This document shows, piece after piece, positions 1 to 62,505 of a DNA stretch of 62,505 bases; within the stretch, counting starts at the first letter, position 1, and each line of letters opens with the position of its first letter. Source of the stretch: an uncultured Candidatus Saccharibacteria bacterium (GTDB lineage Bacteria; Patescibacteriota; Minisyncoccia; Phycocordibacterales; UBA2163). The notes beneath the pieces are model-generated. The model saw nothing but the letters and a program-made list of their open reading frames with translations, was not told the origin of the DNA and searched no databases. The stretch lies in the NCBI GenBank assembly GCA_964626705.1, contig CAZVGL010000004.1, forward strand, positions 1 to 62,505, in the 5' to 3' direction. Both the position numbers and the translations under genes were made by a program.

Positions 1-23
1 AGGTTCGAGCAAAGTCTATTAAA

Positions 24-165
24 AGAGCACCAAAATTAACTTCGTCCAAATCGTGAAAATTATTCGCTAAATCATTTGGCAAAAACGGATGGGAAAACGG
101 CGATTTCGTAGCGTAAGCAAAGGATAATTCAGACGGCGGGCACGCGCCGAAGTGGGCTGATTTGT
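24..165 (+). repeat. 142-bp inverted repeat, left copy (partner 1583..1724)
   Basis: Compared base by base: exact reverse complement of 1583..1724; begins with the tRNA 3' end AGAGCACCA. Confidence 0.95.
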
Positions 166-189
166 TAGTTTCATATCAAAAAACTATAT

Positions 190-1779
190 ATGAGTATCAA
201 ACCAAAATATTTTCTTTATGCTCGCAAGAGTACGGAGGATGATAATAAGCAGATTATGAGTATTGAAGCGCAGCTATTTGAATTGCGAGAGTTTGCTCGC
301 AAAGAAAATCTTGAAATTCTTGAGGAATTTCAAGAGTCGAAAAGCGCAAAGACACCCGGTCGCTTAGTGTTTGGTGAAATGATGGCAAAAGTTGAGGAAA
401 TGGGTAATGTTGGTATTTTAGCGTGGCATCCAGACCGTCTTGCGCGTAATAGTGTAGACGGCGGGAGAATAATCTATGCAGTGGATCAGAGAAATATTGT
501 GTCTTTACGCTTTCCGACATTTTGGTTTGAACCGACACCGCAGGGGTTATTTATGTTGCAAGTGGCGTTTGGTCAATCTAAGTATTATTCGGATAATCTC
601 GTGCAGAATATAAAGCGGGGGATGCGCCAAAAAGTTCGTCGGGGAGAGTGGCTTGGTTTTGCTCCTCCAGGGTATATTAATAATCCGCGCACTCGGAATA
701 TCGAACCTCATCCAACTCATTCGCGTATTATCAAGAGAGCTTTTGAGGAATATGCAAAAGGCAAGCACACACTTATTTCCTTGGCGAACTTTTTGGCGGA
801 ACATGGCATGAGCACAAGGGAGAACACGCCACTTGCCAAATGTTCCATCAAAATCATACTGACAAACAAGGCGTATTTAGGGTTTGTAAAATATCATGGA
901 GAATTGTTTGAAGGAACATTTGCGCCAATTATTACCCCGAAATTATTTGAAGCCGTGCAGAAAGTTCTCGCAACAAGAGGAAAACCGCGTAAATCTAAAG
1001 TGGGGCATAATTTTCCTTTCGTTGGACTTTTTTGTTGTGTAGAGTGTGGGAGTATGATTACTGCTCAATGGGCAACTAATCGTTTTGGCACAAAATATAG
1101 ATATTATCGTTGCACAAAAAAGAAAGGAAAATGCTCCCAAGGATATTTACGCGAGGATAGGCTTGTCGCTCAAATACAGGAACGGCTTCAAAAAATTTCT
1201 CTTTGCGATGAGAGTATTGATAAGATGCTCAAGCAAGTTGATAAATGGGAAAAAGAAAACAATCTCTCATCGCAAACTTGCGTTCAAAATCTTGCTGATA
1301 AAATCAAAGTGAGTGAAGATCGCTTAGAAAAGTTAGTCAGTTCATATTTAGATGGTGATATACCGAAAGAGATTTATATACAAAAGAAAGAGGGGAATAT
1401 GCGCTCCACACTCGCTTTGAAACAGAAACAGAAAGATTTGGAACGCAAGGGTAACAATTGGGTCGAACCCCTGCGGAATTGGATTTTAGATATGAAACTA
1501 GCCAATTTTTTATCCTCATCCACAGATTTTCACGAAATCAGCTCCTTCGTCAAAAAAGTTGGAACGAACCCTACGGTTCGTGACAAATCAGCCCACTTCG
1601 GCGCGTGCCCGCCGTCTGAATTATCCTTTGCTTACGCTACGAAATCGCCGTTTTCCCATCCGTTTTTGCCAAATGATTTAGCGAATAATTTTCACGATTT
1701 GGACGAAGTTAATTTTGGTGCTCTCAGTAGGAATCGAACCTACATCGCATCTTCCGCAAAGATGTATTCTATCCGTTGA
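190..1779 (+). CDS. Large serine recombinase (resolvase + recombinase + Zn-ribbon + coiled coil)
   Basis: YARKS catalytic motif, DRLARN, CxxC (CVEC), YYRC; C-terminal tail is encoded by the inverted repeat and antisense tRNA. Confidence 0.92.
   Translation: MSIKPKYFLYARKSTEDDNKQIMSIEAQLFELREFARKENLEILEEFQESKSAKTPGRLVFGEMMAKVEEMGNVGILAWHPDRLARNSVDGGRIIYAVDQRNIVSLRFPTFWFEPTPQGLFMLQVAFGQSKYYSDNLVQNIKRGMRQKVRRGEWLGFAPPGYINNPRTRNIEPHPTHSRIIKRAFEEYAKGKHTLISLANFLAEHGMSTRENTPLAKCSIKIILTNKAYLGFVKYHGELFEGTFAPIITPKLFEAVQKVLATRGKPRKSKVGHNFPFVGLFCCVECGSMITAQWATNRFGTKYRYYRCTKKKGKCSQGYLREDRLVAQIQERLQKISLCDESIDKMLKQVDKWEKENNLSSQTCVQNLADKIKVSEDRLEKLVSSYLDGDIPKEIYIQKKEGNMRSTLALKQKQKDLERKGNNWVEPLRNWILDMKLANFLSSSTDFHEISSFVKKVGTNPTVRDKSAHFGACPPSELSFAYATKSPFSHPFLPNDLANNFHDLDEVNFGALSRNRTYIASSAKMYSIR
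1583..1724 (-). repeat. 142-bp inverted repeat, right copy
   Basis: Reverse complement of 24..165; overlaps the last 9 nt of tRNA-Arg. Confidence 0.95.
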
Positions 1780-1790
1780 ACTATGAGAGC
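1716..1790 (-). tRNA. tRNA-Arg(GCG), CCA encoded
   Basis: Cloverleaf GCTCTCA...TGAGAGC-ACCA; anticodon arm CATCT-TTGCGGA-AGATG; T-loop TTCGATT. Confidence 0.93.
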
Positions 1791-3453: not shown

Positions 3454-4695
3454 ATGAAAACTGTAAAAGAAAATATTTATTTGATTATAGCAGGAGTGTT
3501 CGCATTTGGGATTATAAATGCAGCATTGTTTTATTCATACACGGATAAGTTTTCGAGTATAGCATACGTAACATTTCTTATAGCACCCCTTCTAATTGCT
3601 GTGGTTGTCGTATTTACTAAGTTTTCATTTTTATTTACATCAAGGATCTCTGAACAAGAAGACGAGAAGAAACTGTTGCGTGAACGACAGAAAGAAATAG
3701 TAGAAAACATGATAGAAGGGCTTGTGGTGCACGACAAAGTAGGTAAAATACTTTCGGTTAATAGTATGGCAGAAAAGTTCTTAGGTATCCCTATATCGGA
3801 GCTTATTTATAAGAAGAATTCAGAGATAACAAAAAGATCGTCACTTCTCGATGCTTTGTTTAAGAAGTTTAATAAAGGAGATAGTCAGGAACATTCATTT
3901 AAAGATAAGCGTGGTAAAGAATATGTGTTTAAGATAATAAGTGTAGAGCTTAATAAAAAGCGTGGAGAGGTTCTAAAAATAATAAGAGATATTTCGAGAG
4001 AAAAACATTTGGATAAGATGAAGTCTGAGTATATTACTATTATGTCTCATAAGTTTTTGACACCACTTAACGGTATTAAGTGGACAGCACCTAGCTTGTT
4101 AGATAAGGCTATAAAAGAAGATGACAAAGAAAGGTTTGTAAAAAACATAATAGAAAGCACAGATAATCTAATAAATCTGACCTCACTGCTACTTAGGGTT
4201 ACAGAGATGGAGGAAGGGAACTTCGTGTATAAATTAGGACCAGTTGATATAAAGTCAATTGTTGAGAATGCTGTTAAAGATAGAGGTGACGATGTAAAGA
4301 AGAGGAAGATATCGATGATGTTTCATAAACCAGGAGTTTTGATGCCAAATGTTATTGCAGATAGGGATAGGGTAAAAGTTGTCGTCGATAATCTTATAGA
4401 CAATGCGATAAAGTATACCTTAGATGGTGGTAATATAGAGATCTCTTTAAAAGAAGAGGGTGGTAATGTTCGGTTTAGTGTTAAAGACGATGGTATCGGT
4501 ATATCAAAGAAGGCTCAGTCAGATATATTTTCAAAATTCATCAGGGACGATAGAGCTATAGCAATGCATACAGAAGGTTCTGGACTGGGGCTTTTCATAT
4601 CAAAAAATATAATAGAAGAACTTAAAGGTAAGATTGGCTTTACTAGTTCTGAGGAAGGAGGTTCAACGTTTTTCTTCACACTACCAAGAAAATAA
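3454..4695 (+). CDS. Sensor histidine kinase (2 TM, PAS, HisKA, HATPase)
   Basis: H-box SHKFLTP, N-box NLIDNAIKYT, G boxes DDGIGI and GSGLGL. Confidence 0.93.
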   Translation: MKTVKENIYLIIAGVFAFGIINAALFYSYTDKFSSIAYVTFLIAPLLIAVVVVFTKFSFLFTSRISEQEDEKKLLRERQKEIVENMIEGLVVHDKVGKILSVNSMAEKFLGIPISELIYKKNSEITKRSSLLDALFKKFNKGDSQEHSFKDKRGKEYVFKIISVELNKKRGEVLKIIRDISREKHLDKMKSEYITIMSHKFLTPLNGIKWTAPSLLDKAIKEDDKERFVKNIIESTDNLINLTSLLLRVTEMEEGNFVYKLGPVDIKSIVENAVKDRGDDVKKRKISMMFHKPGVLMPNVIADRDRVKVVVDNLIDNAIKYTLDGGNIEISLKEEGGNVRFSVKDDGIGISKKAQSDIFSKFIRDDRAIAMHTEGSGLGLFISKNIIEELKGKIGFTSSEEGGSTFFFTLPRK

Positions 4696-4738: not shown

Positions 4739-5122
4739 TTATTCAGAGATCATTTTGTCTTTTTCTGATAAAAGTATCTTTATCTTTTGTATAATCTCTT
4801 GAGGTGTGCTTTGGGCTTTTATTATGTAGTCTTTTACTCCAAAAGACTTAGCTGTGTCTGCACTCTCTTGGTCGTATAGGTTTGATAAAACAACTATGGG
4901 TGTCATATTGTTTTCAGCTCTAAGCTCTTTTAGGAGCTCAAGTCCGTGTAGTTTGGGTAAGATAAGGTCTAGGAGTACAATGTCAAAATTCCCCTTCCTT
5001 ATCTTTTCTAGACCCGCTTCTCCGTCAGTAGCTATTTCAATATTAAAACCTTCTTGTGTGCCTGCTACAGAAAGCATTTCAAGAAGAAAATTATCATCTT
5101 CTATTATAAGTATTTTAGACAT
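4739..5122 (-). CDS. Single-domain response regulator (receiver)
   Basis: ILIIEDD, DIVLLDLILP, VLSNL, YIIK. Confidence 0.93.
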   Translation of the reverse strand: MSKILIIEDDNFLLEMLSVAGTQEGFNIEIATDGEAGLEKIRKGNFDIVLLDLILPKLHGLELLKELRAENNMTPIVVLSNLYDQESADTAKSFGVKDYIIKAQSTPQEIIQKIKILLSEKDKMISE

Positions 5123-6602: not shown

Positions 6603-7205
6603 ATGAAAAACTATCTAAGAAAAATAAAGATAAATATGCGTGACTGGATGGTTAAACATGCTGGAGGTATCCATGCGAGAAGATGGTTGTCTTTTTTTTC
6701 ATTTGCAGAAGCTTCTTTCTTTCCTATACCTCCTGATTTTATACTTATCGCAATCTTAGGTGCAAAGCAGCAGAAAAACTGGTTTTATTATTCAATGCTC
6801 ACAGCTCTGTGGTCTGTTTTGGGTGGAGCTCTTGGGTATGCTATAGGGTTTCTTCTTTTTGATAGTGTGGGGCAGTGGCTTGTAACAACATACAACCTCC
6901 AAGACCACATGATTACTGTAAAAGAGCTTTTTGACCAGAATGCATTTTGGGCTATCTTTATATCTGGCTTTACACCTATTCCTTATAAGATATTTACTAT
7001 TTCTGCAGGGTTTTTTAGTATTAACTTCTTTACGTTTATTGTGGCCTCAATCATTTCTCGTTTCTTACGCTTCTTTATAGTCGGTTATATAATGAAAGTC
7101 TTTGGAAAAGAGATGAGTAAGTTTGCATTTAAATATTTTAATATTCTAACTATTGTTTTTGCAGTAGGAATTATCGTTTTTGTTGTAGCAATAAAAATCT
7201 ATTGA
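6603..7205 (+). CDS. YqaA/DedA (VTT domain) membrane protein
   Basis: SFAEASFFPIPPD, GFTPIPYKIFTI. Confidence 0.88.
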   Translation: MKNYLRKIKINMRDWMVKHAGGIHARRWLSFFSFAEASFFPIPPDFILIAILGAKQQKNWFYYSMLTALWSVLGGALGYAIGFLLFDSVGQWLVTTYNLQDHMITVKELFDQNAFWAIFISGFTPIPYKIFTISAGFFSINFFTFIVASIISRFLRFFIVGYIMKVFGKEMSKFAFKYFNILTIVFAVGIIVFVVAIKIY

Positions 7206-8340: not shown

Positions 8341-8880
8341 ATGCGAAACATTTTATTACAAGAAAATAAAAACAGACTTTTTAAAGAGCATAAGCTTCGC
8401 GTCTTGTTGTTGGTGTTGATATTTATATTTTTTACATTAATAATCGCACTATTGTTTCTATCTCCTTCGTATCTTGCTTCTAGATATAAAGAATCCAATA
8501 CATTAGAGTATGCCAATGTGTTAAAGAGATCTGTTGAAATACAGGAAAAGAATATTTTAGGACTAACGTTAAATGATACAAAAACAAAACTACAACTCCT
8601 TTCTGGTGACAAAGATGATGTTTCTTTTGTAGATATTGTAAGGGTAATAATTAAAAACAAATCAGATGATATAAAAATAGATAGTTTCTTGTATACAAAA
8701 GACAGTAAAGATGGGGATCAGGTTCTTGTAACTGGGATAGCTTCGGACAGAAGTGTATTGCTGCAATTTCAGAAAGATTTAAAAAATGAAGTACTGTTTT
8801 CAGATATTATCCTTCCGACGTCCAACCTTGCTTCGGATAGAAATATAGAGTTTTCAATAAGAGCAATTAATAAACTTTAG
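8341..8880 (+). CDS. PilN-like protein
   Basis: N-terminal TM and ferredoxin-like C-terminus; directly after pilM. Confidence 0.65.
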   Translation: MRNILLQENKNRLFKEHKLRVLLLVLIFIFFTLIIALLFLSPSYLASRYKESNTLEYANVLKRSVEIQEKNILGLTLNDTKTKLQLLSGDKDDVSFVDIVRVIIKNKSDDIKIDSFLYTKDSKDGDQVLVTGIASDRSVLLQFQKDLKNEVLFSDIILPTSNLASDRNIEFSIRAINKL

Positions 8881-10068: not shown

Positions 10069-10776
10069 ATGAATATAAAAATACTATTTGAAAACGATGA
10101 GGTACTTGTGGTTGATAAACCTGCAGGTCTTGTGGTGCATGGCGATGGGAAGACTGACGAGCCTTCTCTGACTGACTGGGTGCTTGAGAAATATCCGGAG
10201 ATGGAGAGTGTTGGCGAACCTGCGCAATATGATGGTAAAGAAATAGCACGGCCGGGTGTTGTGCATAGACTAGACAGAGATACATCAGGAGTGATAGTGC
10301 TTGCAAAAACTCAAGAATCTTTTTTAAATCTAAAGAAACAGTTTCAAGAAAGGAAAACAAAGAAAATCTACAATGCTTTTGTATACGGTGCTGTAAAAAA
10401 TGAAGAAGATACTATAGATAGACAGATAGGAAAAAGCAAAAGCGACTTTAGAAAATGGTCAGCACAGCGCGGAGCGCGAGGAGTGCTTCGTGAAGCTGTT
10501 ACGGATTATAAAGTTTTACAGAAGAATAAAGATTTTTCATATCTAGAAGTGTCACCACAGACTGGGCGAACACATCAGATACGTGTGCACTTGAAGGCTA
10601 TAAACTATCCAGTGGTGTGCGATAAGCTGTATGCTCCAAAGCGTGAACATGCTCTTGCTTTCGAGCGTTTGGCGCTCCACGCAAGGTCTATTACATTTTC
10701 TCTCCTAAATGGCGAAAGCGTCTCGATGGAGGCAGATTTGCCAAAAGACTTTGAAAAAGCTCTAGGTTTGCTATAA
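10069..10776 (+). CDS. RluA-family pseudouridine synthase (no S4 domain)
   Basis: VDKPAGLVVH, HRLDRDTSG, GRTHQIRVH. Confidence 0.93.
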   Translation: MNIKILFENDEVLVVDKPAGLVVHGDGKTDEPSLTDWVLEKYPEMESVGEPAQYDGKEIARPGVVHRLDRDTSGVIVLAKTQESFLNLKKQFQERKTKKIYNAFVYGAVKNEEDTIDRQIGKSKSDFRKWSAQRGARGVLREAVTDYKVLQKNKDFSYLEVSPQTGRTHQIRVHLKAINYPVVCDKLYAPKREHALAFERLALHARSITFSLLNGESVSMEADLPKDFEKALGLL

Positions 10777-10828: not shown

Positions 10829-11446
10829 ATGGCTACAACAGAAGCAACATCTGGAATCACGGTTTCTCCGGTAAATATGGAGAGCAGACAAGAACTCGGC
10901 ATTCGTGCTGGTGATACTGTGCGTGTGTGGCAGAAGATCCAAGAAAAAGGCAAGACAAGACTACAGGCGTTTGAAGGGCTTGTGCTTGCGCATAAGCATG
11001 GTAGTGAGGCAGGAGCTACATTTACAGTAAGAAAGGTTGCAAGTGGCGTAGGTGTAGAAAAAATATTCCCATTGTATTCTCCAGTTATAGATAAAATAGA
11101 GATCGTGAAGCGTGCAAAAGTTCGTCGAGCTAAGCTTTATCATGTTCGTGATAAAGCCGCTAAAGAAATAAGACGACAAATGAGAAATACTATGTTTGTA
11201 GATATACAGACGGTAAGTGACACAGAGGAAGCAAATAAAAAAGTAGCAGATGAAGAAGCTGCTAAAAAAGCTGAGGAAGAAAAAGTACAAGCAGAAGCAA
11301 CTGCAAAGGCAGAGGCAGAGAAAGCAGAAGAGGTGGTAGAAGAAGCTTCAAAAGATACTGCTACAGATGCACCAGCAGAAGAAAAGAAAGAGGAGGTGGT
11401 AGAAGAACCAAAAGCAGAGGAAAAGGTAGAAGAAGAAAAGAAATAA
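10829..11446 (+). CDS. rplS: 50S ribosomal protein L19 with long acidic C-terminal tail
   Basis: GDTVRV, RLQAFEG, GVGVEKIFP, VRRAKLY. Confidence 0.96.
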   Translation: MATTEATSGITVSPVNMESRQELGIRAGDTVRVWQKIQEKGKTRLQAFEGLVLAHKHGSEAGATFTVRKVASGVGVEKIFPLYSPVIDKIEIVKRAKVRRAKLYHVRDKAAKEIRRQMRNTMFVDIQTVSDTEEANKKVADEEAAKKAEEEKVQAEATAKAEAEKAEEVVEEASKDTATDAPAEEKKEEVVEEPKAEEKVEEEKK

Positions 11447-12793: not shown

Positions 12794-13884
12794 TGAGATC
12801 TTTTTTTCAAAAATATAAAGAATTTTTCAAACGCAATGAGCGATATATTTCTGGTGGGGCACTTTTGCTTGGTTTTATAGTAGACAACTTTACTTTGACG
12901 AGGATCGATCTTAGTTTTGACAATATTGTACTTTTTACATATCTGACTATTGCACTCTTGGCGATAGTGGCTATAAACTTTTATGAAGAAGGGGTTTTGA
13001 AAGGGTTCTTATTTGAGAAAGTTAGGTTTATCGCACCACTTGCAATGCAATTTGCATTTGGTGGCCTTTTCAGTGGGTTCGTAATCTTCTATTCTAGAAG
13101 TGCATCGCTCATTACAAGCTGGCCATTTATTTTGATGCTTATTGCACTTTTAGTCGGTAATGAATTTTTCAAGAAAAAATATACTAGGTTTACTTTTAGG
13201 ATGAGTATATTTTTTGTAGCGCTTTTCTCTTTCTTAATCTTCTATGTTCCTGTTGTCACAAAGTCTATAAATGCTGGTATCTTTCTCTTAAGTGGAGTTA
13301 TAAGTTTGGCACTTATGGCGATTTTGGTCCATACTTTGAGAGTTTTTATTCCAGCTCGGATTAAAAAAAGTAAAAATGCTCTTAGGTTAAGTATTGTGAG
13401 CATCTTTGTTCTTATAAATATTTTTTATTTTACGAATATTATCCCACCGATACCACTTTCACTTAAAGAGGCAAGCGCACATTATTTTGTAGAGAGAACA
13501 GTTGGAGGCGACTATCTTGCGACAAGTGAAATTGAAAAATGGTACAGCTTTTTAACACTAGGTAATACTATTTATGTTTCAGTAGGTGAGCCAGTGTATG
13601 TTTTTAGTTCGGTATTTGCACCAACAAAACTCAATACGCAGATTTTCCATAAGTGGCAGTATTATGACGAGGGGAGGGATGAATGGATAGAGAGTGATAA
13701 GCTAGGGTTTGCAATATCAGGTGGACGTGACGGCGGGTATAGAGGATATACTATGAAATCAAACGTGACCGAAGGTCTCTGGCGTGTGGATGTGCTAACA
13801 AAGCGTAACCAACTTCTCGGAAGGGTGAAGTTTAAGGTAGAAGAAGTGCAAAAAACTATAGATTTAGAGATAAAGACTATTTAG
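12793..13884 (+). CDS. Polytopic membrane protein with C-terminal DUF2914-like domain
   Basis: ~7 TM then H.W, GGRDGGYRGYT, G.WRVDV. Confidence 0.8.
   Translation: MRSFFQKYKEFFKRNERYISGGALLLGFIVDNFTLTRIDLSFDNIVLFTYLTIALLAIVAINFYEEGVLKGFLFEKVRFIAPLAMQFAFGGLFSGFVIFYSRSASLITSWPFILMLIALLVGNEFFKKKYTRFTFRMSIFFVALFSFLIFYVPVVTKSINAGIFLLSGVISLALMAILVHTLRVFIPARIKKSKNALRLSIVSIFVLINIFYFTNIIPPIPLSLKEASAHYFVERTVGGDYLATSEIEKWYSFLTLGNTIYVSVGEPVYVFSSVFAPTKLNTQIFHKWQYYDEGRDEWIESDKLGFAISGGRDGGYRGYTMKSNVTEGLWRVDVLTKRNQLLGRVKFKVEEVQKTIDLEIKTI

Positions 13885-60389: not shown

Positions 60390-62505
<2,116 letters not shown>

Follow-up and report, generated by a model that had tools for sequence, protein, structure and literature searches.

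The window, the whole 62,505-nt stretch analysed (contig CAZVGL010000004.1 of assembly GCA_964626705.1, from an uncultured Candidatus Saccharibacteria bacterium), opens with a gene for a large serine recombinase (LSR) that is enclosed by perfect 142-bp inverted repeats and converges on a tRNA-Arg gene. Comparative analyses suggested that this locus is probably part of a small integrative element of Patescibacteria, which its LSR would insert at the 3' ends of tRNA and transfer-messenger RNA (tmRNA) genes, and in which attL, the recombinase, an inverted attP, cargo and attR follow one another. The 142-bp repeat is better explained as the duplicated attachment-site arm of such a mobile element than as part of a switch. 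The anatomy, its recurrence across genomes, the concerted evolution of the repeats, the residence of elements at different tRNAs and the tandem arrays could all be read from sequence comparison.

The two arms of the repeat are 100% complementary over 142 nt and separated by a spacer of 1417 nt, as an earlier note on this DNA had reported (coordinates of all features are given in Table 1). The runner-up inverted repeat in the first 4 kb is only 27 nt long at 78% identity, and chance was therefore excluded as the origin of the long repeat. The tRNA-Arg(GCG) gene was called intact by both ARAGORN and Rfam; its last 9 nt (AGAGCACCA) are contained in the right arm and recur at the outer end of the left arm, which agrees with the proposed anchoring of the repeat on the tRNA 3' end. 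An Rfam scan returned tRNAs and rRNA only. No direct target-site duplication was found flanking the 142-bp repeats, and these are not the ends of an insertion sequence, as conserved DNA of the element extends beyond the left arm.

The 529-aa product of the enclosed gene contains the Resolvase (PF00239, E = 3.8e-21, residues 8-154), Recombinase (PF07508, 1.1e-13) and Zn_ribbon_recom (PF13408, 6.8e-09) domains, and the nearest solved structures are those of SPbeta integrase, followed by A118 integrase chains, at weak similarity (E = 3e-11). From the three domains and these nearest serine integrases, the protein is therefore identified at the sequence level as an LSR. The YARKS motif with S14 and the zinc-ribbon cysteines C283, C286, C308 and C315 were invariant in an alignment of 22 relatives. 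With 529 aa and LSR domains, the protein is not of the Hin/Gin invertase type, which has ~190 aa and a C-terminal helix-turn-helix. Conservation of the protein ends at ...VGTNPxVRDKSA(H/R)FG, at about residue 472, and the tail beyond is variable among relatives and often runs antisense across a tRNA T-loop. In the window the open reading frame (190-1779) crosses the right arm and continues antisense into tRNA-Arg, just as the note had described. Exact look-up of the recombinase and of a 161-aa neighbour protein returned no record.

A database search with the recombinase gave more than 6500 relatives at E < 1e-20; identity is 60-82% for the best of them, and the named ones are almost always annotated as Patescibacteria. 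Only a single distant relative, at 39% identity, was found on viral contigs, so the family does not look phage-borne. We surveyed 80 loci, one genome per species and including complete chromosomes, which makes 81 with the window. A flanking inverted repeat of at least 100 nt was present in 67 of the 81 loci, with arm-to-arm identity of at least 97% in 41 of these 67, and the VRD|KSA codons invariably marked the start of the right arm. In 58 of the 67 repeat-bearing loci, the right arm contained or adjoined the end of a convergently oriented tRNA or tmRNA gene, and the architecture was thus found at tRNAs in other genomes of the Candidate Phyla Radiation (CPR), where the earlier note had suggested looking. 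The targets comprise Ser, Glu, Arg, Ala, Gly, Leu and Lys tRNAs, a tRNA with the anticodon UUA, and tmRNA. The tmRNA 3' end is occupied in L057 (7520-7911), L047, L064 and L072. The UUA-anticodon tRNA abuts the element in L087 (1832-1905), where ARAGORN called it tRNA-Stop; it could be a suppressor tRNA or reflect stop-codon reassignment in that genome.

The DNA beyond the left arm proved to be part of the element. In nearly all loci a stretch that we call Pf (GGTTCGAGCAAAG...) is conserved beyond the arm, reading GGTTCG(A/C)GCAAAGGnTA..., and in L001, a locus carrying the window's own element, Pf extends further left than the window start. Conservation across loci continues more weakly for ~110 nt outside the arm, and a divergent XRE-family gene lies at -300 to -650 relative to it. 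Inspection of the sequence upstream of the window, made through relatives, therefore recovered both conserved element DNA and an XRE regulator gene. Together with the 1.1-4.1 kb of cargo found in relatives, these overturn the earlier view that the element consists of a recombinase only. An 82-aa open reading frame upstream of the left arm (L001, 15142-15390) is of low complexity and was judged not to be a real gene. In L095, three direct copies of a hairpin, GGCTCAAGTCGTTGAGCC, were observed at 1809-1839, 3827-3857 and 10373-10403, and the copy nearest the recombinase (window coordinate about -337) coincides with the left limit of nucleotide homology with L011, an element at tRNA-Lys.

A third site was found further out. 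Among 38 loci with sufficient left flank, 15 carried an inverted distal copy of Pf and three more were partial cases. The distal copy lies 1.1-4.1 kb further out, is 148-383 nt long and is mostly 98-100% identical to Pf; past a shared core of 3-10 nt (CCGCA, TCACA or GCACA) it joins unrelated DNA, which often resembles a native tRNA terminator. Complete relatives thus contain three sites, namely tRNA-core-X, where X denotes the arm, an inverted Pf-core-X, and Pf-core-host. Because recombination of Pf-core-X with tRNA-core-host would yield both outer sites, tRNA-core-X is assigned as the putative attL and Pf-core-host as the putative attR, and in our best reading the middle site, Pf-core-X, would be an intact attP. 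Complete elements measure 3.1-6.3 kb and carry, besides the XRE gene, variable cargo that includes transporters, methyltransferases, a deaminase, a lyase and secreted proteins. The window holds the tRNA junction with the tRNA intact, and both junctions are present in 15-18 relatives.

We infer the identities of the attachment sites, the crossover point, excision to a circle and catalysis by this recombinase from these comparisons. In the proposed model, attL would consist of the right arm and tRNA-Arg, with the T-arm and acceptor end of the tRNA as the host half-site; crossover would take place within the last tRNA nucleotides (core about GCAC), and the arm X would restore the tRNA end. The left arm and Pf would form an intact, inverted second attP between the recombinase and the divergent XRE genes, and attR would be the distal inverted Pf region (150-380 nt), joined to host DNA at the core past the cargo. 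An integrated element would consequently hold two nested pairs of inverted repeats. Recombination of attL with attR may release a circle with two inverted attP regions of ~370 bp each, a new element may enter the occupied site (tRNA-core-X) and give rise to tandem arrays, gene conversion from arm to arm would keep the arms identical, and the recombinase segment could, rarely, adopt the other orientation. By three-site comparison the common core was definable only to 3-10 nt, the crossover of a serine integrase being 2 bp.

The arms follow the tRNA class and evolve together. The 2-3 nt ahead of the discriminator vary by tRNA class, and both arms match each class. The element at tRNA-Lys in L011, which is 82% identical to that of the window, differs from it at exactly the pre-discriminator positions in both arms; the AGA of the tRNA-end copy at 24-32 is also part of Pf in this relative. 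Median arm identity was 98.5% within elements and 61% between elements, and in related pairs an arm was closer to its own partner than to the same-side arm of the sister element. The sister strain L092 has five arm differences from the window, and all five occur in both arms. These results indicate that the arms evolve in concert.

The distance between the GGTTCGA motif and the arm is 15 nt in Pf and 9 nt in the tRNA T-loop, and this 6-nt offset was seen in every tRNA class. The earlier note had read AGGTTCGA at positions 1-8 as a decayed T-loop; the sequence is indeed present, but it belongs to a family-wide motif at a fixed offset, in which Pf mimics the tRNA T-loop. In the LI integrase, the attB position of the motif for the zinc-ribbon domain (ZD) is 5 bp nearer to the centre than its attP position (PMC3783163). 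Because the 6-nt offset resembles this attP/attB spacing, the tRNA may act as a host-type half-site and Pf as an element-type half-site. It is also conceivable, if unlikely, that each site has a single typed half, either a T-loop at attB spacing or Pf at attP spacing, and that the other half is interchangeable. If true, every product would again be attB-like or attP-like, and integration, excision, inversion of the element's own segment and element capture would be possible without a directionality factor. The result would be a reversible, shufflon-like cassette system based on tRNA genes, in which a flip puts the recombinase behind the tRNA promoter (on) or convergent to it (off).

Evidence for movement came from closely related elements and from arrays. 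Recombinase cores that are 94-95% identical were found at tRNA-Ser(GCU), tRNA-Ser(CGA) and tRNA-Ser(GGA) in different species with flanks that could not be aligned, and such near-identical elements at different tRNAs indirectly support mobility. Lake metagenome contigs (L100-L103) carry tandem arrays, whose junctions (for example in L102) read Pf(new)-core-X(old), the order that insertion of a new element into the occupied site tRNA-core-X would produce. The arrays also hold a recombinase-less remnant of ~110 nt that retains just the two outer X ends. At L100 9445-9589 and L101 6881-7026 this remnant is an imperfect palindrome with Pf on one side and, on the other, either tRNA-Leu (in L100) or a further Pf (in L101). 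It resembles a non-autonomous derivative of the kind of miniature inverted-repeat transposable elements, occurring twice in one array.

The remnant would also fit a model in which the recombinase segment (X ... X') and the cargo segments (Pf' ... Pf) are separate modules with terminal inverted repeats, which circularise to a palindromic site and insert successively at the tRNA, the left arm being one end of the recombinase module. In favour of this model, each segment has an inverted repeat of its own at its borders, and X and Pf types reassort, with L030 combining the X and core of the L024 type with a different Pf. We nevertheless regard such cassettes as improbable: the recombinase module was never found alone between tRNA and host DNA, Pf always adjoins the left arm, and a one-module circle would carry a perfect palindrome of at least ~260 bp, and its site would have no GGTTCG half-site. 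Extra inverted pairs in L102, considered as possible module ends, turned out to be spurious, as they stem from copies of a palindromic GC-rich repeat (GCGAGGGCGCGGCGGAA GGGGGG ... GGGGGG AATTCCGCCGCGCCC). This repeat was observed at 6831-6905, 8445-8552, 11328-11428 and 13074-13155, between cargo genes and in Pf-upstream regions.

The earlier note had proposed a self-inverting element, in which the recombinase flips its own gene between the arms and so toggles its promoter context and C-terminus, the repeat being the working site. A recombinase within a segment bounded by inverted repeats does recall hin, and the opposite orientation occurs in nature: in L022, tRNA-Glu, arm and recombinase all point in one direction, and the recombinase of L096 is inverted with respect to its XRE cargo. 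Moreover, Pf-core-X and tRNA-core-X resemble inverted attP- and attB-like sites whose recombination would regenerate the same two types, and concerted evolution implies that the arms interact physically. The orientation is, however, nearly fixed, with 58 convergent loci against one flipped, and a search of the Joint Genome Institute (JGI) metagenome contigs for the flipped junction of this strain (tRNA end, 142 N and leader) gave no match. Coexisting orientations, by which an invertase would be recognised, were therefore not seen in these data, which are contigs with one of ~60 loci flipped across species. The last residues of the reading frame do change with the orientation, as the note had held, but the tail subject to this change is not conserved. 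In addition, the element is not recombinase-only, it occurs at different tRNAs, and a perfect identity of 142 bp far exceeds the requirement of a serine recombinase site. The tail reads into Pf in 13 of 117 homologues; at least some of these cases are due to tandem arrays, and they were not counted as inversions. We conclude that the segment may invert but that the repeat owes its existence mainly to something else; flipping is at best rare, and a switch seems an improbable account of the locus.

It is very unlikely that the repeat serves at the RNA level, with the arms pairing the mRNA leader with the 3' end or giving terminator or antisense control, and with the DNA repeat as a by-product. 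The arms of GC-rich relatives do have hairpins with GAAA and UUCG loops, which vary among loci, and the start region is covered by a short second repeat. On the other hand, the mismatches between arms are not biased towards G:U, with 31 and 34 of 141 on the two strands, the window arm folds no better than shuffled sequence (z = 0.28), and neither a terminator-like site nor an Rfam match was found in the arms. Because of the missing G:U bias, homogenisation acts on DNA, as gene conversion, and not through selection on an RNA duplex. A scan for promoters and terminators was uninformative.

The note had also raised the prospect that the left repeat lies at a contig end and is an assembly artefact. 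The window begins 23 nt beyond the left arm and stops within 23S rRNA, and is for this reason probably the whole contig. An identical response-regulator gene at 4739-5122 gave access to contigs from other samples and assemblers, and in five of these assemblies the entire structure is colinear. It lies mid-contig in the longest spanning contig (ENA NODE_1, 288 kb) and is also internal to JGI contigs of 82 and 178 kb. The same design is present in the complete chromosomes of relatives (CP060229.1 and OY970382.1). Although the left arm is so close to the window start, and many related contigs likewise break near the arms, such breaks are expected from a genuine repeat, and with 67 loci of differing sequence sharing the design, a fold-back or mis-join has a negligible probability and is effectively refuted already.

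The five assemblies differ from the window by 17 substitutions only, all clustered in 1282-1455. This 174-nt patch is 100% identical to the allele of the sister strain (L092, L094) and alters eight residues; it may have arisen by recombination between co-occurring element variants or by chimeric assembly. The contigs of relatives often start at a fixed distance outside the left arm, at 44-52 nt (L012, L027, L032, L033, L055, L081, L085), 116-125 nt (L062, L073, L083, L028, L029) or 134-137 nt (L064, L082, L087). These distances approximate an assembler k-mer (55, 127, 141) minus the core length, as a graph branch at Pf and core would produce. Since the starts match in this way, they hint at a second Pf copy in many more genomes than could be checked directly.

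Several observations weigh against the integrative element as proposed here. The distal copy was missing from the sequence at hand in 20 of the 38 testable loci. The element of the window itself showed no distal Pf copy, either over 5.2 kb in L001 or across the whole window, nor did the close relative L095 over 10.7 kb; a Pf-pattern scan of the JGI metagenomes gave four copies, all from the internal site, and a homologue search with a 222-aa protein, made to extend the contig of this strain leftwards, gave one fragment only. Every contig of this strain carries the element, and neither an empty attB site nor a circular junction was seen. A recombination directionality factor was not identified. 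At 6 nt, the offset departs from the 5 bp of the LI integrase, the X and host-side half-sites are without the GGTTCG motif, and the sites are very asymmetric for an LSR. Finally, equally usable attP copies predict about equal orientations, whereas the observed orientations are strongly biased and no flipped contig of this strain was found in the JGI metagenomes; the model leaves both this bias and the role of the internal attP unexplained.

The proposed element shares features with several known systems. Serine integrases recombine attP with attB at a 2-bp crossover, and excision requires a directionality factor. The large serine integrases A118/LI, Bxb1, phiC31 and SPbeta SprA have the same domain order (catalytic Ser, recombinase, zinc ribbon with coiled-coil), produce hybrid junctions around the integrated element, as proposed here, and have the shared motif further out in the element-side half-site than in the host-side one, as may also be the case here. 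The elements described here differ from them in targeting the 3' ends of many tRNA and tmRNA genes, in having the motif in only one half of each site, in apparently retaining an intact inverted attP that gives nested repeats of 130-380 bp, and in being 3-6 kb long with no phage genes and no recognised directionality factor. The Hin/Gin/Cin/Pin invertases likewise combine a serine recombinase with a segment bounded by inverted repeats, and the hin gene lies inside the invertible segment. These enzymes are ~190 aa long with a C-terminal helix-turn-helix, act on 26-bp sites, depend on Fis and an enhancer, and alternate between the two orientations; here, by contrast, we found a 529-aa LSR, 142-bp repeats and one dominant orientation.

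Tyrosine-integrase islands at tRNA and tmRNA genes (P4-like islands, tycheposons) show the same 3'-end insertion with restoration of the gene end, small variable cargo and tandem accretion. They use tyrosine recombinases and have direct repeats of the tRNA 3' part, whereas the present elements have a serine recombinase, a direct core of only 3-10 nt and long repeats that are inverted. The predicted circle resembles the yeast 2-micron plasmid (FLP/FRT, 599-bp inverted repeats), with two unique segments and a site in each repeat; FLP, however, is a tyrosine recombinase acting on identical sites of a self-replicating plasmid, and no replicon gene was seen in the elements described here. The LSR transposons Tn4451 and Tn5397 (TnpX, TndX) are also small and moved by an LSR via a circular intermediate, as would be the case here, but they have other targets and lack both tRNA anchoring and nested long inverted repeats.

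CPR/Patescibacteria have tiny genomes and few recognised mobile elements. The recombinase family, with members in the thousands and an unusual degree of conservation (60-82% identity), often occurs in multiple copies per genome, and it apparently represents a very large, undescribed family of small mobile elements in these bacteria. Both the enzyme class and the tRNA-targeting lifestyle have precedents. What appears to be new is how large the family is in CPR, together with the nesting of the inverted repeats, the intact attP inside the element and a half-site motif that is present on one side only. A full-text literature search found no account of this architecture, which does not disprove that one exists. 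The results give the family a concrete anatomy and a rule for its targets, which are tRNA and tmRNA genes at their 3' ends, provide a handle on gene flow in CPR through small cargo islands and tandem arrays, and explain the recurrent contig breaks in CPR assemblies. They also make available a naturally occurring collection of serine integrases with attachment sites that are legible directly in genomes, a point relevant to genome engineering. The internal inverted attP and the concertedly evolving repeats would fall outside the textbook picture of serine integrases, and pose a testable question about the control of directionality.

Table 1 Features of the recombinase locus, in window coordinates
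Feature	Position	Strand	Remarks
Outer half-site Pf of the internal attP-like site	1..23	+	Incomplete, as the window begins within it; GGTTCGA occupies 2-8, at a distance of 15 nt from the arm
Copy of the tRNA 3' end (AGAGCACCA)	24..32	+	Includes the common core, about GCAC, the putative crossover location
Left arm	24..165	+	Inner (X) arm of the putative intact inverted attP-like site, upstream of the recombinase gene
Short second inverted repeat	160..182	+	Leader just 5' of the start codon; pairs with 1484-1506, 23 nt, 87%
LSR gene, 529 aa	190..1779	+	Conserved to about residue 472 (nt ~1605), then variable tail
Mosaic patch, coiled-coil part of the recombinase	1282..1455	+	17 differences from the L001-type allele; equals the L092/L094 allele
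Hairpin CGAACC-CTAC-GGTTCG	1565..1580	+	Within the gene; codes for the invariant TNPxVR; separated by 2 nt from the right arm's inner end
Right arm	1583..1724	-	Element-borne X arm of the putative attL; provides the last nucleotides of the tRNA and new downstream sequence
tRNA-Arg(GCG)	1716..1790	-	Putative host-side (B-type) half-site = T-loop and acceptor 3' strand, 1725-1743; TCGAACC at 1734-1740
Pf stretch whose inverted copy would mark the distal junction			...CGAAATAGGTTCGAGCAAAGTCTATTAAAAGAGCAC

The hairpin that the earlier note had placed just inside the right repeat was recovered at 1565-1580, and it constitutes a third GGTTCG motif, on both strands. The right half of the short second repeat is coding sequence ~80 nt ahead of the right arm. 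The same pair, at 18-25 nt, was also observed in at least 12 relatives, so that the long repeat looks as if broken on its right side by ~76 nt of coding sequence. At the far end of the window, the 23S rRNA gene (60390-62505) is truncated, and its 2116 nt span model positions 1-1977. The surplus of ~140 nt is possibly an insertion near 62370-62430, which would fit the rRNA insertions known in CPR bacteria.

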